A stretch of DNA of 64,000 nt from Escherichia coli (GTDB taxonomy: Bacteria > Pseudomonadota > Gammaproteobacteria > Enterobacterales > Enterobacteriaceae). Below are positions 1 through 37,512 of the stretch, piece after piece; the first letter of the stretch is position 1, and each line of letters begins with the position of its first letter. The position numbers and the translations under genes were made by a program. Location: assembly GCF_003019035.1 (NCBI RefSeq), contig NZ_CP027447.1, one strand, 5' to 3'. Under the pieces are notes generated by a model that was given only the letters and a program-made list of their open reading frames with translations, searched no databases and was not told the DNA's origin.

Positions 1-48
1 CGTAAACGCCTTATCCGCCCTACGGGGTAGTGCTGTTCGTATGAGGCG
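1..48. repeat. Partial REP-like (repetitive extragenic palindromic) element at window edge, 3' of fbaB
   Basis: GC-rich imperfect palindrome resembling E. coli REP units (..ACGCCTTATCCG..CCTACGG..) immediately downstream of the fbaB stop; truncated by window start. Confidence 0.45.
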
Positions 49-50
49 TA

Positions 51-1103
51 TCAGGCAATAGTAATTTTGCTATCGAGATAAACGTCCTGCACGGCGTTAA
101 TCAGTTTCACGCCGTCAGCCATCGATTTCTTGAACGCCTTACGTCCAAGAATCAGCCCCATTCCGCCAGCGCGTTTGTTGATAACCGCAGTACGCACTGC
201 ATCGCTGAGGTCAGTTTCACCGCCCGCAGCACCGCCGGAGTTTATCAACCCAGCCCGGCCCATATAGCAGTTAGCTAACTGATAACGCACCAGATCAATC
301 GGGTTTTCGCTGGTCAATTTGCTGTAGACGCGATCGTCGGTATAACCGTAATTAATCGCTTTATAGCCGCCGTTATTTTCCGCCATTTTTTGTTTAACGA
401 TATCTGCACCTATGGTCGCCGCCAGATGGTTTGCCTGACCGGTCAGGTCGGCGGAAACATGGTAATCAACGCCATCTTTCTTAAAGGCGGAGTTACGCAA
501 ATAGGCCCACAGCACTGTCACCATGCCCAGCTCGTGCGCACGTTCAAAAGCCGCAGAAATTTCTTCAATCTGGCGACGTGACTCTTCCGAGCCAAAATAG
601 ATAGTCGCCCCAACCGCCACCGCGCCCATATTGAACGCCTGCTCCACGCTGGCATACAGCGTTTGATCGTAGGTATTCGGGTAACTTAGCGTCTCGTTGT
701 GATTAAGTTTGACGAGGAATGGAATGCGATGCGCGTAACGCCGCGATACCGATGCCAGCACGCCGTAAGTTGACGCCACGCAGTTACAGCCCGCTTCGAT
801 CGCCAGTTCAACAATGTTTTTCGGGTCAAAGTAGAGCGGGTTAGCGGCAAATGAAGCTCCGGCAGAGTGCTCAACGCCCTGGTCAACCGGCAGAATAGAA
901 AGATATCCTGTGCCAGCCAGACGCCCGGTGTTGTACAACGTCTGCATATTACGTAACACCGCTGGCGGGCGATTATTGTCAATCATCACGCGGTCTACGT
1001 AGTCATGTCCGGGGAGATAAAGCTGGTCAGAAGGAATAGTCATACAACGGTGCTGTAAAAGGTTGTCGGCGTCTTTGCCAAGCAACTGCGCAATATCTGT
1101 CAT
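51..1103 (-). CDS. fbaB: Fructose-bisphosphate aldolase, class I (350 aa)
   Basis: ORF 51..1175(-); mature protein begins [20 protein letters not shown] as recalled for E. coli FbaB; internal ATG (1101-1103) chosen over the upstream in-frame ATG at 1175. Confidence 0.93.
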
Positions 1104-1359
1104 TACTATGCTCCCGTAAATTCCGATTGGATATCGGCTATGGATTGTCCTGGCCCGCCTTTTGCGGGCAATCATAATCCTGGTCGTTACGGGCGAGTTT
1201 TTCCATCTTTTGGATGTTTTTTCAGCGTTTTCTGTTGGCTCGATTCATCAGAAAAAATGTTACAGCGGTCAAGCTTTCACCGCAAAGGTATTTAAAAGGT
1301 ATTATTAAGTGGTATTGTCATCGCGTACCTTACATTACCTGTCATGAAGGAATTAAAAG

Positions 1360-2637
1360 ATGAAAACAACAGCAAAGCTGTCGTTCATGATGTTTGTTGA
1401 ATGGTTTATCTGGGGCGCGTGGTTTGTGCCATTGTGGTTGTGGTTAAGTAAAAGCGGTTTTAGTGCCGGAGAAATTGGCTGGTCGTATGCCTGTACCGCC
1501 ATTGCGGCGATCCTGTCGCCGATTCTGGTTGGCTCCATCACTGACCGCTTTTTCTCGGCACAGAAAGTGCTGGCGGTATTGATGTTCGCTGGTGCGGTGC
1601 TGATGTATTTCGCTGCGCAACAGACCACTTTTGCCGGCTTCTTCCCGTTACTGCTGGCCTACTCGCTAACCTATATGCCGACCATTGCGCTGACTAACAG
1701 TATCGCTTTTGCCAACGTGCCGGATGTGGAGCGTGATTTCCCGCGCATTCGTGTGATGGGCACTATCGGCTGGATTGCCTCTGGTCTGGCATGTGGATTC
1801 TTGCCGCAAATGCTGGGTTATGCCGATATCTCACCGACGAACATCCCGCTGCTGATTACCGCCGGAAGTTCTGCTCTGCTTGGTGTGTTTGCGTTTTTCC
1901 TGCCCGACACGCCACCAAAAAGCACCGGCAAAATGGATATTAAAGTCATGCTCGGCCTGGATGCGCTGATCCTGCTGCGCGATAAGAACTTCCTCGTCTT
2001 TTTCTTCTGTTCATTCCTGTTTGCGATGCCACTGGCGTTCTATTACATCTTTGCCAACGGTTATCTGACCGAAGTTGGCATGAAAAACGCCACTGGCTGG
2101 ATGACGCTCGGCCAGTTCTCTGAAATCTTCTTTATGCTGGCATTACCGTTTTTTACCAAACGCTTTGGTATCAAAAAGGTATTATTACTTGGTCTGGTCA
2201 CCGCTGCGATCCGCTATGGCTTCTTTATTTACGGTAGTGCGGATGAATATTTCACCTACGCGTTACTGTTCCTCGGCATTTTGCTGCACGGCGTAAGTTA
2301 CGATTTTTACTACGTTACCGCTTACATCTATGTCGATAAAAAAGCCCCCGTGCATATGCGTACCGCTGCGCAGGGGCTGATCACGCTCTGCTGCCAGGGC
2401 TTCGGCAGTTTGCTCGGCTATCGTCTTGGCGGTGTGATGATGGAAAAGATGTTCGCTTATCAGGAACCGGTAAACGGACTGACTTTCAACTGGGCCGGGA
2501 TGTGGACTTTCGGCGCGGTGATGATTGCCATTATCGCCGTGCTGTTCATGATTTTTTTCCGCGAATCCGACAACGAAATTACGGCTATCAAGGTCGATGA
2601 TCGCGATATTGCGTTGACACAAGGGGAAGTTAAATGA
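1360..2637 (+). CDS. yegT: Nucleoside:H+ symporter-family (NupG/XapB-like MFS) transporter, 425 aa
   Basis: Long hydrophobic polytopic ORF; GAAGGA RBS ~9 nt upstream of ATG; recalled as E. coli YegT. Confidence 0.9.
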   Translation: MKTTAKLSFMMFVEWFIWGAWFVPLWLWLSKSGFSAGEIGWSYACTAIAAILSPILVGSITDRFFSAQKVLAVLMFAGAVLMYFAAQQTTFAGFFPLLLAYSLTYMPTIALTNSIAFANVPDVERDFPRIRVMGTIGWIASGLACGFLPQMLGYADISPTNIPLLITAGSSALLGVFAFFLPDTPPKSTGKMDIKVMLGLDALILLRDKNFLVFFFCSFLFAMPLAFYYIFANGYLTEVGMKNATGWMTLGQFSEIFFMLALPFFTKRFGIKKVLLLGLVTAAIRYGFFIYGSADEYFTYALLFLGILLHGVSYDFYYVTAYIYVDKKAPVHMRTAAQGLITLCCQGFGSLLGYRLGGVMMEKMFAYQEPVNGLTFNWAGMWTFGAVMIAIIAVLFMIFFRESDNEITAIKVDDRDIALTQGEVK

Positions 2638-3638
2638 AAACAGAACGTATTCTCGGTGCTCTTTATGGGCAGGCGTTAGGGGATGCGATGGGGATGCCCT
2701 CCGAGCTTTGGCCGCGCAGTCGCGTCAAAGCACACTTTGGCTGGATTGACCGTTTTCTGCCTGGGCCAAAGGAGAATAACGCAGCCTGTTATTTTAACCG
2801 CGCCGAATTCACCGACGATACCTCGATGGCGCTGTGTCTGGCGGATGCGTTACTGGAACGTGAAGGCAAGATCGATCCGGATCTGATTGGGCGTAATATT
2901 CTCGACTGGGCGCTGCGTTTCGACGCCTTTAACAAAAACGTACTAGGTCCGACCTCGAAGATTGCGCTTAACGCCATTCGCGACGGTAAACCCGTTGCTG
3001 AACTGGAAAATAACGGCGTGACCAACGGCGCAGCGATGCGCGTCTCGCCATTAGGTTGTTTGCTTCCGGCGCGCGATATTGACTCTTTTATTGATGATGT
3101 GGCGCTGGCCTCCAGCCCGACACATAAATCCGATCTGGCGGTTGCGGGGGCGGTAGTCATCGCATGGGCGATTTCTCGTGCCATTGACGGAGAAAGCTGG
3201 TCAGCGATTGTTGATTCACTGCCTTCAATTGCGCGACATGCTCAACAAAAACGCATCACTACCTTCAGCGCCTCACTGGCAGCACGTCTGGAGATTGCGC
3301 TGAAAATTGTGCGCAATGCCGATGGCACCGAATCCGCCAGCGAACAGCTTTACCAGGTCGTTGGCGCAGGTACCAGCACTATTGAGTCCGTTCCGTGCGC
3401 CATTGCGCTGGTTGAACTGGCACAAACCGACCCGAACCGTTGCGCCGTCCTGTGCGCTAACCTTGGCGGCGACACAGACACCATCGGTGCTATGGCGACG
3501 GCAATTTGTGGCGCGTTGCATGGCGTTAACGCTATCGATCCTGCGTTAAAGGCGGAACTGGATGCAGTAAATCAGCTTGATTTCAACCGCTATGCCACGG
3601 CGCTGGCGAAATATCGTCAACAACGGGAGGCGGTATGA
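2634..3638 (+). CDS. yegU: ADP-ribosylglycohydrolase-family protein, 334 aa
   Basis: ATG overlaps yegT stop (ATGA, translational coupling); recalled as E. coli YegU (ADP-ribosylglycohydrolase family). Confidence 0.9.
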   Translation: MKTERILGALYGQALGDAMGMPSELWPRSRVKAHFGWIDRFLPGPKENNAACYFNRAEFTDDTSMALCLADALLEREGKIDPDLIGRNILDWALRFDAFNKNVLGPTSKIALNAIRDGKPVAELENNGVTNGAAMRVSPLGCLLPARDIDSFIDDVALASSPTHKSDLAVAGAVVIAWAISRAIDGESWSAIVDSLPSIARHAQQKRITTFSASLAARLEIALKIVRNADGTESASEQLYQVVGAGTSTIESVPCAIALVELAQTDPNRCAVLCANLGGDTDTIGAMATAICGALHGVNAIDPALKAELDAVNQLDFNRYATALAKYRQQREAV

Positions 3639-4600
3639 GCGGCGCGCGATTACACACGCTGCTGCCTGAATTAACCACGCGTCAGTCGGTGATGGTCGTC
3701 GGCGCGGCGGTCATTGACGTGATCGCCGACGCTTATGCCCTCCCCTGGCGTGGGTGCGATATCGAACTGAAACAGCAGAGCGTTAACGTTGGCGGCTGCG
3801 CACTGAATATTGCCGTGGCGTTAAAGCGCCTCGGCATCGAAGCGGGTAATGCCTTGCCGCTCGGTCAGGGCGTGTGGGCGGAGATTATTCGCAACCGGAT
3901 GGCAAAAGAGGGCTTAATCAGCCTGATCGATAACGCCGAAGGCGATAACGGCTGGTGTCTGGCGCTGGTTGAGCCGGATGGTGAACGCACGTTTATGTCG
4001 TTCAGCGGTGTGGAAAATCAATGGAATCGCCAATGGTTGGCGCGATTAACCGTTGCACCTGGCAGCCTGCTCTATTTTTCCGGTTATCAACTGGCCTCGC
4101 CCTGCGGCGAATTGTTAGTGGAATGGCTGGAAAAGCTGCAAGACGTGACGCCGTTTATCGATTTTGGCCCACGTATTGGCGATATCCCGGATGCATTACT
4201 GGCGCGGATCATGGCCTGTCGACCTTTAGTATCACTCAATCGTCAGGAGGCTGAGATTGCCGCCGAACGTTTTGCTTTATCCGCAGAGATAACAACACTT
4301 GGCAAGCAATGGCAGGAGAAATTTGCCGCGCCGTTGATCATTCGTCTCGATAAAGAGGGCGCATGGTATTTCAGCAACGACGCTTCTGGCTGCATTCCGG
4401 CATTTCCAACGCAAGTTGTAGACACCATTGGGGCGGGCGACAGTCATGCCGGCGGCGTACTTGCCGGGCTGGCCTCTGGTCTGCCACTGGCGGATGCCGT
4501 ATTACTGGGCAATGCAGTGGCGTCGTGGGTTGTCGGGCATCGGGGCGGTGATTGTGCGCCAACGCGCGAGGAACTACTCCTCGCACACAAAAACGTATAG
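3635..4600 (+). CDS. yegV: PfkB/ribokinase-family carbohydrate or nucleoside kinase, 321 aa
   Basis: ATGA overlap with yegU stop; C-terminal DTIGAGDSHAGG motif typical of PfkB kinases. Confidence 0.9.
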   Translation: MSGARLHTLLPELTTRQSVMVVGAAVIDVIADAYALPWRGCDIELKQQSVNVGGCALNIAVALKRLGIEAGNALPLGQGVWAEIIRNRMAKEGLISLIDNAEGDNGWCLALVEPDGERTFMSFSGVENQWNRQWLARLTVAPGSLLYFSGYQLASPCGELLVEWLEKLQDVTPFIDFGPRIGDIPDALLARIMACRPLVSLNRQEAEIAAERFALSAEITTLGKQWQEKFAAPLIIRLDKEGAWYFSNDASGCIPAFPTQVVDTIGAGDSHAGGVLAGLASGLPLADAVLLGNAVASWVVGHRGGDCAPTREELLLAHKNV

Positions 4601-5320
4601 ATCGCTGCGACAGTGGCTGATGCTGTACTCAATAGGCCGTTGCTGTTGGTCAAGCGCCACTTGCTTGATCACCAGCACCGGTATTTTGCTATCTAACTGA
4701 ATATGTGACTGAAACTCGGCATCCGGCATCCGGGCGCTAACGCGGGAACGCGTACGTTGTGGGTAAATGTGCTGGCTGCGGAAGTAGTCATAAAGAGAAA
4801 TCCCGATGGCATCAACATCATGAATTAAATGTGCCGGAACCCACGATTCCTCAATCGATACCGCTTCTTCATCGACATAGCGAATACGCTTAAGCAAAAA
4901 GACATCACTTCCCGCTTCGACCGCCAGCTGCTGCGCAACTTCTTCGGGACATTTCACGACACGCTTGTTAACCCATAGCGTATCGGGCTTTTTCCCGCGC
5001 AATACCACCTGCTGAGAAAAACCTCGCGCTTCTTTCAACGAGTATTCGAAGATGTTGTTGATCTGCGTACCGTAACCACGCGAACGCGTCACCACGCCCT
5101 CTTCTTCCAGCGCCTGCATCGCCTTGCGCACCGTAATGCGCGAAACGCCGGTTAACTGACTTAAATCACGCTCACCGGGCAAAATATTGCCATGCTCCAG
5201 CACCCCGCTGCGCACGGCATTTTTTACCGTTTCGGCAAACTTAATATAAAGCGGCGTGTTATCCGCCGCTAAAATACGTTCGTTCAGTTGGGCAATCAGC
5301 TGGGTATGCGCTTGTTCCAT
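4574..5320 (-). CDS. yegW: GntR-family (HutC-subfamily-like) transcriptional regulator, 248 aa
   Basis: N-terminal winged HTH (..LPGERDLSQLTGVSRITVRKAMQALEEEGVV..) plus C-terminal effector domain; 3' end overlaps the yegV 3' end by 27 nt (convergent). Confidence 0.9.
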   Translation of the reverse strand: MEQAHTQLIAQLNERILAADNTPLYIKFAETVKNAVRSGVLEHGNILPGERDLSQLTGVSRITVRKAMQALEEEGVVTRSRGYGTQINNIFEYSLKEARGFSQQVVLRGKKPDTLWVNKRVVKCPEEVAQQLAVEAGSDVFLLKRIRYVDEEAVSIEESWVPAHLIHDVDAIGISLYDYFRSQHIYPQRTRSRVSARMPDAEFQSHIQLDSKIPVLVIKQVALDQQQRPIEYSISHCRSDLYVFVCEE

Positions 5321-5371
5321 TTGTCTTTTTCCTGCCGGGGAGTCTGGTGGGAGTATATCACTGCTTCTTAT

Positions 5372-6190
5372 TTAAGGCGTTTCTTTAATCCCATCAACGA
5401 ATCCCTGCAACTCCTCCTCTGTGCCATTAAACACATTAAAATCCACCGGACCATTAATGCCATCTACCTGCCCACGGTCGGAATGCTGCCAGAAGCGCCA
5501 GGCCATGCCGTCATTGTCCGGACGACGTTGATAGTAGTGAGCCACCCACCACGGATATTCATTGAAATAGCCCGCCAGATTCGTGTGATAAAAAACGGCT
5601 CCTGAGTAAATAATCGGCTTTTTCCCCGTACTTTTTTCGACCATTTTTAGCCACTGACTTACCCGCTTGCGTAATTCTTTTGCCGATAATTTTCCCCGTT
5701 CTTCTACGTCCAGCACGGCAGGGAAATCGCCTTGTGAGAAATCCACCGTTTGCAGAAATAATCTCGCCTGAACTGAAGCGGATACCGACGGGGAAAAATA
5801 ATGATACGCCCCGCGCAGCAGGCCATTTTCGCGGCTTAGTTGCCAGTTACGCGAAAAATAGGGGTCCACCAGCTTTTCGCCTTCCGTCGCCTTAATAAAA
5901 GCAAACTGTAAGCGGATACCGTTGTCGCGCATTTTTGCCACCCGCTGCCAGTCGATCCGCTCCTGCCAGCGCGAAACATCTATTCCGTGAATGGTGTAAC
6001 TGGCAGGAATGCGAATAGCAAAAGATTTGACTGGACGATAACCGTAGAAGTGGATGTAGTCTTTAATCTGAATTGCTGTCGAGTAGAAAAAATTCACCGT
6101 CTGACGCGGATAAATTGCAACGATGGAAATTAGCCCAAGAGCGCATAATAAAGCGGTGAATTTTTTTCGACTGGTGATTCTCAGCTGCAT
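5372..6190 (-). CDS. yegX: Glycoside hydrolase family 25 (lysozyme-like) protein with N-terminal membrane anchor/signal
   Basis: ORF 5372..6199(-); GH25-like protein recalled as YegX (272 aa); start set at ATG 6188-6190, alternative in-frame ATG at 6197-6199 gives 275 aa. Confidence 0.85.
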   Translation of the reverse strand: MQLRITSRKKFTALLCALGLISIVAIYPRQTVNFFYSTAIQIKDYIHFYGYRPVKSFAIRIPASYTIHGIDVSRWQERIDWQRVAKMRDNGIRLQFAFIKATEGEKLVDPYFSRNWQLSRENGLLRGAYHYFSPSVSASVQARLFLQTVDFSQGDFPAVLDVEERGKLSAKELRKRVSQWLKMVEKSTGKKPIIYSGAVFYHTNLAGYFNEYPWWVAHYYQRRPDNDGMAWRFWQHSDRGQVDGINGPVDFNVFNGTEEELQGFVDGIKETP

Positions 6191-6254
6191 TGGTTTCATC
6201 CCTGAATGTCAGCGCCAAAGACTGACAATAACCAAAGCAGCTATAGTAAGGTGC

Positions 6255-7055
6255 TCACCACCACGCGTGGAAGTGGTGAACCGGACCAATACCGTGACCA
6301 ACTTCCAGCGTGTCGGCCTGGGCTAACGCCGATGAAAGCCAGCTTTTTGCCTCCTGTACGGTGTCAGCCCAGTTTGTATGGCGCGGGCGTAGTGCAGCCA
6401 ACGCCGCAGAGAGCGTACAACCAGTGCCGTGGGTGTTTTTGGTCATAATGCGCGGTGCAGTAAATCGTTGTTCCCCCTCACGAGTAAACAGCCAGTCCGG
6501 GCTTTGCTCATCATCCAGATGACCACCTTTCATTAGCACTGCGCCACAGCCCATCGCCAACAGCGATCGCCCTTGTTCCAGCATTTCCTGTTCGGTGCGC
6601 GCGTGTGGCGCGTCGAGCAAGGCGGCTGCTTCGGGCAAGTTTGGCGTTATTAATGAAACATGTGGCAATAATCGACTGCGTAGCGTGGCAACTGCCGAAG
6701 GTGAAAGCAGCGGGTCGCCGCTTTTTGCCAGCATAACGGTGTCGAGTACCACGTTTTGGATCTGATAACGTTGCAACCGTTCTGCCACCGCTTCAACAAT
6801 ATCGGTTTCCGCCAGCATACCGATTTTAGTGGTATCGATTCGCACATCGCTGAACACCGAATCGAGCTGGGCGGCGACAAAATCAGGCTCAATGCGATAC
6901 ACCAACTGTACGCCACGGGTATTTTGCGCCACCAGTGCAGTAATCACTGAGCAACCATAAGCGCCAAGTGCCGAGAAGGTTTTAAGATCGGCCTGAATCC
7001 CCGCACCACCACTCGGATCAGTACCGGCAATCGTCAGAGCGTTAATTCGTTTCAT
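6255..7055 (-). CDS. thiD: Hydroxymethylpyrimidine / phosphomethylpyrimidine kinase, 266 aa
   Basis: Ribokinase-fold protein ([25 protein letters not shown]..); start ATG overlaps thiM stop (ATGA); recalled as ThiD. Confidence 0.95.
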
Positions 7056-7840
7056 GCCTGCACCTCCTGCGTCAATTGCCAGAGCGCATCAAGGAAATGT
7101 GGAACAAAACTGCCTGGCCCCTCGCTTCTGGCGACTGCGCGTTCTCCAGCTTGTTTCATCCAGTGACAGGCAAATGCGATATTTTCCAGCGTATCGCCTG
7201 GTAGCGCACAACAGGCAGCGACAACCGCCGATAGTGCACAGCCAGTTCCTACCACTTTGGTCATTAACGGATCGCCACCGTGAATGCCAATGATACGATG
7301 TCCATCGGTAACATAATCCACCTCGCCAGTGACCACGACAATTGCGCCAGTTTCCCGTGCCAGTGTTTGTGCAGCAGGTATCGCGTTAGCTGCGGCATCA
7401 GTGGTATCCACTCCCCGTCCACCATTAGCAACGCCAGCTAATGCCATGATTTCCGAAGCATTACCACGTATGGCGGTTGGCTTATGGGACAGAAGTTCCA
7501 CACAAAAACGGCGGCGATAATCGAGCGCACCAACCGCAACCGGATCAAGCGTCCAGGGCATTTGTGATCGTGTTGCTTGCTCAACGGCAGCACTCATCGC
7601 TTGCGCTCGTGGCTGCGTCAGCGTGCCAACGTTAATCAACAAGGCACTGGCGATAGCCGCAAACTGACTGGCCTCTTCGGTTTCGATAACCATTGCTGGC
7701 GATGCACCGAGCGCCAGCAAGGTATTGGCAGTAAAGGTTTGCACCACATCGTTGGTCATACAGTGCACAAGAGGGGAATGTTGGTGAAAAAGGTGTAACG
7801 CGTGCGCAGATTGCGCTGAACTCAGCAGGTCGACTTGCAT
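7052..7840 (-). CDS. thiM: Hydroxyethylthiazole kinase, 262 aa
   Basis: 262-aa ORF with AGGAG RBS; preceded by a canonical TPP riboswitch; recalled as ThiM. Confidence 0.95.
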
Positions 7841-7975
7841 AGTTTGCTCCTGCCATAACGTGAAGAAGCAATGACCTGGTGGTCCGTGACTTCCCTACGC
7901 TGGCATTATCCAGATCAGGTGATACGGGTATTTCTCAGCCTTTACGCAGAAGGGCACCCCGAGTCGTTTGGTTGC
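7841..7975 (-). promoter_or_regulatory. thiM 5' leader containing TPP (THI-box) riboswitch
   Basis: Minus-strand leader reads ..GGGGUGCCCUUCUGCGU.AAGGCUGAGAAAUACCCGUAUCACCUGAUCUGGAUAAUGCCAGCGUAGGGAAGUCACGGACCACCAGGUCAUUGCUUCUUCACGUUAUGGCAGGAGCAAACUAUG, the well-known thiM TPP aptamer with CUGAGA box and SD-sequestering expression platform. Confidence 0.9.
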
Positions 7976-8062
7976 GATAATAAATCGCAGAGGAGGATGG
8001 TAATGTCCAGCGCACGCGTTGTAAACGGGGAAAAACGGCGGTATTACAATAACGTTGTGAAA

Positions 8063-8335
8063 TTATTTGATATAAGAATCCAGCACCTTCAGAACGACAT
8101 CCAGATCTTCTTCACGTTTTAGCTCATCCCCCTGGTGAACGATGTGTTCCGTCAGATGGCCTTTAATCACTTCCCGCATCAGACCGTTTACCGCGCCACG
8201 GATAGCAGCAATCTGTTGTAAAACTGCAGCGCATTCATGCGGTTCGTCGAGCATTTTCTTGAGCGCCACGACCTGGCCCTGAATCTTACTGGCACGCGCT
8301 TTCAGTTTCTGTTTATCACGGATGGTATGAGACAT
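8063..8335 (-). CDS. rcnR: Ni(II)/Co(II)-responsive transcriptional repressor (CsoR/RcnR family), 90 aa
   Basis: 90-aa all-helical ORF divergent from rcnA; recalled as RcnR. Confidence 0.93.
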
Positions 8336-8383
8336 GGCAACACCTGGTTAACAAGAATATGAAAAATCATAGCACTATTAATC

Positions 8384-8418
8384 TACTGGGGGGTAGTATC
8401 AGGTACTGGGGGGGAGTA
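8384..8418. promoter_or_regulatory. Two tandem RcnR operator sites (TACT-G6/7-N-AGTA) in the rcnR-rcnA divergent promoter region
   Basis: TACTGGGGGGTAGTA (8384-8398) and TACTGGGGGGGAGTA (8404-8418): G-tract flanked by TACT/AGTA inverted repeat, matching the described RcnR recognition motif. Confidence 0.8.
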
Positions 8419-8455
8419 GAATCAGATTGCCGAATTAATACTAAGAATTATTATC

Positions 8456-9280
8456 ATGACCGAATTTACAACACTTCTTCAGCAAGGAAACGCCTGGTTC
8501 TTCATCCCCAGCGCCATCTTACTTGGTGCGCTTCATGGCCTGGAACCGGGGCACTCAAAAACGATGATGGCGGCGTTTATCATCGCCATCAAAGGCACCA
8601 TTAAACAGGCGGTGATGCTCGGACTGGCAGCAACCATTTCGCATACCGCAGTGGTCTGGTTAATTGCCTTTGGCGGGATGGTGATCAGCAAACGCTTTAC
8701 TGCTCAATCAGCAGAACCGTGGCTCCAGTTGATTTCCGCAGTGATCATTATTAGCACCGCGTTCTGGATGTTCTGGCGTACCTGGCGCGGCGAACGCAAC
8801 TGGCTGGAGAATATGCACGAGCATGATCATGAGCATCATCACCACGATCACGAAGATCACCACGACCATGGACATCATCACCATCACGAACATGGCGAGT
8901 ATCAGGATGCCCATGCACGAGCCCATGCCAATGACATTAAACGACGCTTTGATGGTAGAGAGGTCACCAACTGGCAAATTTTGCTATTTGGCTTAACCGG
9001 TGGCCTTATCCCCTGCCCGGCAGCAATTACCGTGCTGTTGATTTGCATTCAGTTGAAAGCCCTGACACTGGGCGCAACACTGGTCGTCAGTTTCAGCCTC
9101 GGCCTGGCGTTAACGCTTGTCACCGTAGGCGTTGGCGCAGCAATCAGCGTTCAGCAGGTCGCAAAACGCTGGAGCGGATTTAACACTCTCGCTAAACGCG
9201 CTCCCTATTTTTCCAGTCTGTTGATTGGCTTAGTTGGTGTGTATATGGGCGTACATGGCTTCATGGGCATAATGCGATAA
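8456..9280 (+). CDS. rcnA: Nickel/cobalt efflux membrane protein with His-rich cytoplasmic loop, 274 aa
   Basis: Polytopic membrane ORF with central His-rich segment (HEHDHEHHHHDHEDHHDHGHHHHHEHG) encoded by CAT/CAC-rich DNA ~8820-8900. Confidence 0.95.
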   Translation: MTEFTTLLQQGNAWFFIPSAILLGALHGLEPGHSKTMMAAFIIAIKGTIKQAVMLGLAATISHTAVVWLIAFGGMVISKRFTAQSAEPWLQLISAVIIISTAFWMFWRTWRGERNWLENMHEHDHEHHHHDHEDHHDHGHHHHHEHGEYQDAHARAHANDIKRRFDGREVTNWQILLFGLTGGLIPCPAAITVLLICIQLKALTLGATLVVSFSLGLALTLVTVGVGAAISVQQVAKRWSGFNTLAKRAPYFSSLLIGLVGVYMGVHGFMGIMR

Positions 9281-9490: not shown

Positions 9491-9829
9491 ATGACCATTA
9501 AAAATAAGATGTTGCTGGGTGCGCTTTTGCTGGTTACCAGTGCCGCCTGGGCCGCACCAGCCACCGCGGGTTCGACCAATACCTCGGGAATTTCTAAGTA
9601 TGAGTTAAGCAGTTTCATTGCTGACTTTAAGCATTTCAAACCAGGTGACACCGTACCAGAAATGTACCGTACCGATGAGTACAACATTAAGCAGTGGCAG
9701 TTACGTAACCTGCCCGCGCCTGATGCCGGGACGCACTGGACCTATATGGGTGGCGCGTACGTGTTGATCAGCGACACCGACGGTAAAATCATTAAAGCCT
9801 ACGACGGTGAGATTTTTTATCATCGCTAA
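9491..9829 (+). CDS. rcnB: Periplasmic Ni/Co homeostasis protein (112 aa, signal peptide)
   Basis: ORF-track entry 9296..9829 is an N-terminal extension; real start ATG 9491 preceded by GTGGAGAG RBS; product MTIKNKMLLGALLLVTSAAWA.. has a signal peptide; recalled as RcnB/YohN. Confidence 0.9.
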   Translation: MTIKNKMLLGALLLVTSAAWAAPATAGSTNTSGISKYELSSFIADFKHFKPGDTVPEMYRTDEYNIKQWQLRNLPAPDAGTHWTYMGGAYVLISDTDGKIIKAYDGEIFYHR

Positions 9830-35830: not shown

Positions 35831-37512
35831 GCCTCGTCCCTCCATGGTAGTCGTAACGTTATTCGGGTGTAACTATCAGGCTCACAGGCGACGCTTATCC
35901 CATAGTCATCGCCAAACCGTTCACGTAAACGCTTATCCACCAGATTCATCCCCAGCCCACTGGCATTGGTTACCGGTTGATACAAACCGGCATTGTCTTC
36001 GATCTCCAGCATCAAATGTTGCCCCTCACGTCGGGCGCTGATTGCCACTCGCCCTGTATCCAGCAGTTGTGATGTCCCATGTTTAATGGCGTTTTCCACT
36101 ATCGGTTGCAGGGTAAACGCGGGCAATTGCTGCTGGGATAATTCTTGCGGAATAGCAATGTTGACCTGCAACCGCGACTGGAAGCGCGCCTTTTCAATTT
36201 GCAGATAAGCGTTCACATGTTCAATTTCGTCGGCGAGAGTAACAAACTCCGAAGGCCGCTTTAAGTTTTTGCGGAAAAAAGTGGAAAGATACTGCACCAG
36301 CTGGCTGGCCTGTTCGCTGTCGCGGCGGATCACCGCTTTAATGGTGTTAAGCGCATTAAACAAAAAATGGGGATTCACCTGGGCGTGAAGCAGTTTGATC
36401 TCTGACTGGGTGAGCATCGCTTTTTGCCGCTCATATTGCCCGGCGAGGATCTGCGCCGAAAGCAGTTGCGCAATCCCCTCACCCAGCGTGCGATTGATTG
36501 AACTGAATAAACGGTTTTTGGCTTCATACAATTTGATGGTACCCATCACTCGCTGATTTTCACCACGCAACGGAATGACCAGCGTCGACCCCAGTTTGCA
36601 TTGCGGATGCAAAGAGCAACGGTAAGGCACTTCGTTGCCATCAGCGTAGACCACTTCACCGGTTTCAATCGCTTTTAAGGTGTAAGTCGAAGAAATCGGT
36701 TTGCCGGGTAAATGGTGGTCGTCACCAATTCCGGTAAAGGCCAGCAATTTCTCTCGATCGGTAATCGCGACTGCACCAATATCCAGCTCCTGATACAGCA
36801 CCTGTGCCACTTTCATGCTGTTCACTTCGTTAAACCCCTGACGCAAAATGCCTTCCGTCGAGGCCGCCACTTTCAGCGCAGTGGCAGAAAAAGCTGAAGT
36901 GTATTTTTCAAACATCGCGCGTTTATCGAGCAATATACGCATAAACAGTGCCGCGCCGACGGTATTGGTGACCATCATTGGCGCAGCAATATTACTCACC
37001 AGACGCACCGCATCTTCATAAGGTCGGGCGATCGCCAGGATGATCAACATTTGCACCATTTCAGCGACGAACGTAACGGCACCGGCGGTAATGGGGTTAA
37101 AGACTTTATCAGTGCGCCCGCGACGGATCAGGATGCTGTGTACCAGGCCGCCGAGCAATCCTTCAACGATGGTCGAGATCATGCAACTTAGCGCGGTCAT
37201 GCCCCCCATCGAATATCGATGTAACCCGCCGGTCAGACCAACCAGCCCACCGACGACCGGACCGCCGAGTAAGCCGCCCATTACCGCGCCTATCGCACGG
37301 GTATTGGCAATAGAATCGTCAATGTGCAACCCAAACCAGGTGCCCATGATGCAGAAGATGGAAAAGACGATGTAGCAGAGAAATTTATGCGGCAGACGAA
37401 CCGTGACCTGCATTAACGGTATGAATAATGGCGTTTTACTCATTAACCACGCAATGACTAAAAAAACGCACATCTGCTGAAGCAGCAGCAACACCAGATT
37501 AAAATCGTACAT
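35827..37512 (-). CDS. btsS: LytS-type sensor histidine kinase (5TM Lyt-GAF-HisKA/HATPase), 561 aa
   Basis: N-terminal polytopic membrane domain, C-terminal kinase motifs (..[16 protein letters not shown].., ..[18 protein letters not shown]..); start ATG 37510-37512. Confidence 0.92.

Follow-up and report, generated by a model that had tools for sequence, protein, structure and literature searches.

A tandem G-tract operator between rcnR and rcnA

The 64-kb stretch of Escherichia coli DNA analyzed here (hereafter, the window) contains the divergently oriented genes rcnR and rcnA, with rcnB positioned 3' of rcnA. On the minus strand at 8063-8335, rcnR encodes a 90-aa Ni(II)/Co(II)-responsive repressor of the CsoR/RcnR family, identified by a full-length match to the equivalog model NCBIfam NF011613 (4e-59) and by Pfam PF02583, and the corresponding protein is WP_000019944.1 in all E. 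coli chromosomes that we fetched. The plus-strand gene rcnA (8456-9280) encodes a Ni/Co efflux transporter with a His-rich loop (NF007454, 5.8e-169; Pfam NicO PF03824), followed on the same strand by the gene for the periplasmic partner, rcnB (yohN; 9491-9829; Pfam RcnB PF11776, 7.3e-19). The annotated length of rcnA takes several values in the E. coli records fetched (810, 825, 837, 858, 870, and 876 nt), which presumably reflects variation in repeat number within the His/Asp/Glu-rich loop, probably at about 8817-8900. On the far side of rcnR, a TPP riboswitch (RF00059, 72 bits, E=9.7e-14) is located on the minus strand at 7875-7971, 5' of a thiM-like ORF (7052-7840), and is also present in the RefSeq annotation; an Rfam scan of the rcnR-rcnA intergenic region itself gave no match.

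The intergenic region, delimited by family HMM matches on either side, holds two G-tract sites, and positions 8384-8418 can be read directly from the window as TACTGGGGGGTAGTA-TCAGG-TACTGGGGGGGAGTA. The rcnR-proximal site (site 1, 8384-8398) is an exact motif match of the form TACT-G6-T-AGTA with its G-run at 8388-8393, and the rcnA-proximal site (site 2, 8404-8418) is an exact match of the form TACT-G7-AGTA with its G-run at 8408-8414; the two are separated by the 5-nt spacer TCAGG (8399-8403). A search of the window with TACTGGGGGGNAGTA, allowing up to two mismatches, returned two matches, namely sites 1 and 2 with zero mismatches each, compared with a mean of 0.16 matches expected in shuffled sequence. 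A repeat search likewise retrieved the two sites as a single 15-nt direct repeat with 93% identity. The G7 run of site 2 is the sole G/C run of at least seven in the window, in which four runs of six occur besides that of site 1. These exact matches, together with the HMM-identified flanks, bear out the description in an earlier note of two near-identical G-tract sites lying 20 bp apart between rcnR and rcnA. An imperfect 16-nt inverted repeat (8372-8387 and 8415-8430, 75% complementary) brackets the entire tandem arrangement, and the sequences just outside the two sites mirror one another (…ATTAATC-TACT and AGTA-GAATCAGAT…).

The same note had pointed to the recognition motif of RcnR, and here sequence, copy number, and location all agree with the published TACT-G6-N-AGTA operator. 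The operator was defined in K-12 MG1655 (Iwig & Chivers 2009, J Mol Biol 393:514; Blaha et al. 2011, Biochimie 93:434), as relayed by papers citing these studies. Over the 120 bp between the two genes, the window matches K-12 MG1655 with 100% identity, and hence the published operator data apply directly. We conclude that 8384-8418 almost certainly represents the already known tandem "type 1" RcnR operator, matching it in sequence, locus, and number of copies without any difference, with RcnR binding taken from the literature on the identical K-12 sequence. The operator itself is textbook-level knowledge for metal homeostasis and nothing new; the value of this part of the analysis is that a regulatory site has been correctly read.

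Three papers (PMC3902906, PMC7055735, PMC7105576) give two copies of TACT-G6-N-AGTA as the RcnR operator, with one RcnR tetramer per site, minor-groove contacts at the TACT/AGTA repeats, and an A-form character of the operator DNA conferred by the unbroken G-tract. RcnAB are named as products under RcnR control in PMC7055735, and a shared operator serving both rcnA and rcnR features in the published description. According to the literature, apo-RcnR tetramers occupy the operator one per site, contacting the TACT/AGTA inverted half-sites on DNA to which the unbroken G-tract lends an A-form-like shape. Once bound, they repress rcnR as well as rcnA(B), until binding of either Ni(II) or Co(II) sets RcnR free. 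In the window, the sites that would be occupied in this way are spaced at exactly 20 bp start to start (approximately two helical turns) and have equal gaps of 7 nt between TACT and AGTA, with T at the N position of site 1 and G at that of site 2.

Predicted promoters interlocked with the operator

The hexamer TAGAAT (8417-8422, plus strand), which overlaps the final two bases of site 2, is the putative -10 element of the rcnA promoter (PrcnA). It consists of the TA that ends site 2 and the four bases after it, and among the 78 orthologous loci with a site-2-like element (see below) it conforms to TAnnnT in every case and is TAGAAT in 48. A possible weak -35 element, TAGTAT (8394-8399, plus strand), was placed from spacing alone, 17 bp 5' of the predicted -10; it is a poor match to TTGACA and begins with the T at the conserved N position of site 1. 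On the minus strand, TGC-TATGAT (8366-8374) is the candidate extended -10 of the rcnR promoter (PrcnR), proposed from conservation only: in most loci, a minus-strand TGnTAnnnT element keeps a constant distance of 12 nt to site 1, for example as TGCTATAAT in eight and TGCTATGAT in four.

In this predicted arrangement, site 2 would fill the PrcnA spacer and overlap its -10 element, and site 1 would lie over the -35 regions of PrcnA and PrcnR alike; bound RcnR would thereby occlude RNA polymerase. The predicted elements fit the published view that rcnA and rcnR share one operator. A generic promoter scan did not call the elements proposed here for rcnA and rcnR. Its sole hit, TTGCCG-16-TATTAT at 8427-8454, was rejected as a promoter because its transcript would begin no earlier than the rcnA ATG and chance alone would yield about 0.7 matches of this kind.

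Two related systems offer comparisons. CsoR of Streptomyces lividans and Bacillus subtilis belongs to the same repressor family as RcnR and uses type 2 operators; the window element differs from these, according to PMC3902906, in that its single tract is unbroken, its repeats lie 7 bp apart, and each site takes one tetramer. The Mesorhizobium NreA operator (TATCC...G7...GGATA) is likewise of type 1, with a single G7 tract inside the -35/-10 spacer. It differs in being a single site with other half-sites, and its G-richness is dispensable for repression by NreA.

Conservation of the operator across species

Orthologous loci were collected with an RcnR-based scan using one genome per species, which yielded 80 loci with 76-100% protein identity from Escherichia, Citrobacter, Salmonella, Raoultella, Kosakonia, Rahnella, Hafnia, Edwardsiella, Erwinia, Morganella, and Vibrio europaeus. 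An element resembling site 2 is present in 78 of the 80, and its tract is G7 in 73 of these, AG6 in two, G8 in two, and G6 in one. In 58 of the 78 loci, site 1 matches TACTGGGGGGTAGTA exactly, the remainder having single substitutions in the run, a degenerate site, or none at all. In Morganella, Edwardsiella anguillarum, and Erwinia psidii, whose site 1 is degenerate or missing, site 2 is still retained, which indicates that the rcnA-proximal site is the core site.

Between the two sites, the spacer is always 5 nt long but is represented by 30 different pentamers across the 78 loci; being fixed in length and free in sequence, it points to a constraint on the 20-bp phasing and none on the spacer sequence. 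The base at N is likewise conserved across loci, as T for site 1 and as G for site 2. This conserved asymmetry, together with the 7-nt and 20-bp spacings that are maintained across Enterobacterales, fits an operator that is interlocked with two promoters.

As a whole, the sites form conserved islands within otherwise diverging rcnR-rcnA intergenic DNA, a pattern that bears on whether the repeat could instead have arisen by chance or for structural reasons, independently of RcnR, for instance as DNA able to form a G-quadruplex or as what is left of a duplication. The two copies do form a direct repeat, and G-runs can in principle adopt unusual structures. An intramolecular quadruplex, however, requires four G-runs and only two are present, and the element shows base-for-base conservation across genera while the flanks and inter-site spacer diverge. 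Moreover, the element always adjoins an rcnR ortholog, and the literature includes binding data. We consider this explanation exceedingly improbable and effectively refuted by the conservation pattern.

The operator is also found on plasmids. In an IncHI2-type plasmid copy of rcnR-rcnA, both sites and TAGAAT are kept and the remaining intergenic region has diverged. The 314-kb plasmid p21AR0133A (L019, locus 1184-2694) carries rcnR WP_000019951.1 and the conserved tandem operator beside an rcnA whose annotation is split or partial; an rcnR of this type, approximately 92% identical, was found in 411 plasmid records.

G-tract length varies within E. coli

Of 5,426 complete E. coli genomes, about 5,352-5,361 contain the locus, and the 46-mer at 8376-8421 is identical in 4,819 of 5,359 E. 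coli records. To this we added counts of tract variants, obtained by exact-match searches with synthetic variant sequences. Site 2 has a G6 run in 146 and a G8 run in 108 of about 5,352 genomes and retains G7 in approximately 95%. At site 1, G5 is found in 20-35 genomes (20 exact matches and a further 15 with another difference) and G7 in 29, the latter count coming from a distant-mode search; G7 runs are masked by megablast as low complexity, as confirmed by a local simulation. In about 5% of E. coli genomes, then, the site 2 G-run departs from G7 by one base in either direction, and this is the one new observation at this locus.

Two candidates for a common E. coli variant, first an A>G change at spacer position 8401 and then AGTA>AGCA in site 1, were rejected, being found in just three and seven genomes, respectively. 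Three different spacer SNPs occur within E. coli (8400, 8401, and 8402), and some 200 genomes carry single substitutions, a number obtained by subtraction and sampled only, with mainly 5-nt spacer changes (8400, 8402) in the sample.

These counts bear on a further proposal of the earlier note, that tract length, six versus seven, could tune repressor affinity between strains. Lengths do vary among strains, and the invariant tract lengths that had been named beforehand as contrary evidence are not what is seen across E. coli genomes. The part of the proposal that did not hold concerns the window itself, where six versus seven is a matter of base identity at N, with the same half-site spacing in both sites.

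As a control for assembly error, we used a coding C6 run in btsS (37202-37207), in which a variant shortened by one base occurs in only 2 of 4,308 genomes. Variation in the operator runs exceeds this baseline by about 8-fold (site 1, one base shorter) to about 60-fold (site 2, one base shorter), a comparison to be read with the expectation that a G7 run is somewhat more error-prone than the C6 control. The low control count implies that most of the operator tract variation is not assembly error. The two genomes with the shortened btsS run (ExPEC XM and Ecol_448) also both appear in the site 2 G6 list and are therefore probably error-prone assemblies. Other likely artefacts are FG31-1, in which rcnA is frameshifted, and the double deletions among the ET strains of one study.

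The distribution of the variants among strains is also informative. Site 2 is G6 in the O111-labelled strains 11128, RM9322, 110512, FWSEC0005, 1056-1, and 9662, and the G6 strains 95NR1 and 95JB1, which we take to be O111 as well, bring the O111 G6 strains to eight. G6 also occurs in O157:H7 EC4115 and SS17, and G8 is found in three O121-labelled strains (RM8352, 16-9255, and FWSEC0006) and in three ST2747 records. Strains of the G6 or G8 type that share a serogroup label differ in listed host, source, and accession series. The rcnA alleles WP_000134576.1 and WP_000134636.1 each occur with G6 and with G7, which suggests recurrent events. Slippage variants of the operator G-runs are real, recurrent, and rare.

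Does tract length tune regulation?

A one-base change at site 2 would shift both the TACT-AGTA gap and the predicted 17-bp promoter spacer, and an effect on regulation is on that account plausible. The site 2 G-run may be a recurrent slippage site at which serogroup-linked alleles, G6 in O111-labelled and G8 in O121-labelled strains, could alter rcnA/rcnR expression through the half-site gap and a 16- or 18-bp promoter spacer; we put this forward tentatively and regard it as doubtful. If it were true, the G6 and G8 alleles would represent natural cis-regulatory variation in Ni/Co tolerance.

A related reading would have the G-runs act additionally as a slippage-driven tuning or contingency element, with the length of site 2 altering RcnR affinity and/or the -35/-10 spacing of PrcnA, so that lineages would have heritably different basal or induced Ni/Co efflux. 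Much of the population evidence described above is compatible with this: variant lengths at both sites that, judged by the btsS control, lie mostly beyond assembly error; the eight O111-labelled G6 and three O121-labelled G8 strains from differing hosts, sources, and accession series; rcnA alleles common to G6 and G7; and the position of the site 2 run within the predicted promoter spacer. Set against it are the clearly error-prone nature of some variant assemblies and, above all, the near-invariance of G7 over the 78 species-level loci, which argues for purifying selection on one length and is matched by the predominance of G7 among E. coli genomes. In addition, classic contingency tracts are longer than the 6-8 bases of this run, which belongs to an enteric bacterium proficient in mismatch repair. 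The near-fixed G7 points to constraint and not to adaptive tuning, and its near-fixation across species argues against high-frequency reversible switching. On balance, we judge a tuning or contingency role unlikely, and retain the reading of a constrained operator with rare slippage variants.

Homopolymer-tract phase variation in promoter spacers is familiar from Neisseria and Bordetella. The likeness to the present locus consists of a G-run situated between predicted -35 and -10 elements whose length varies among strains; compared with those systems, the run in the window is short (6-8) and has one length in about 95% of genomes. A literature search combining rcnR/rcnA with homopolymer, phase variation, evolution, or indels found nothing relevant. 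To the published RcnR operator, the present analysis adds the conserved TAnnnT overlap and a survey of tract length at both the population level and across species. The natural one-base tract alleles are ready-made variants for probing how CsoR/RcnR repressors read half-site spacing and G-tract shape, and together with the natural three-site operators described below they constitute minor but usable leads.

Natural operator rearrangements

Among the Kosakonia/Phytobacter loci, six contain three G-tract sites 5' of rcnR, arranged with the same 20-bp phasing. The order in these operators is AACTGGGGGGGAGTT followed by the usual site 1 and site 2, and the extra copy has AACT/AGTT half-sites. A third RcnR-type site has also arisen in E. 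coli WW2 (NZ_CP081881.1, L001 401-543), a single wastewater isolate, in which a 23-bp tandem duplication of TACTGGGGGGGAGTAGAATCAGG, corresponding to window positions 8404-8426, creates this site together with a second TAGAAT.

Other rearrangements remove or disrupt the element. In Escherichia whittamii Sa2BVA5, a 150-bp deletion (~8350-8499) between CCTGGTT repeats (window 8343-8349 and 8493-8499) eliminates the promoters together with both operators and some 13 codons from the start of rcnA. E. coli 097H6 (NZ_CP187781.1) has a 5-bp deletion at ~8415-8421 that changes the right half of site 2 from AGTA to AATA, making it a natural mutant of the operator and the predicted -10. In E. coli ETEC4085, an IS5-family element is inserted at ~8448, about 8 bp 5' of the rcnA start codon and between the operator/promoter region and rcnA.
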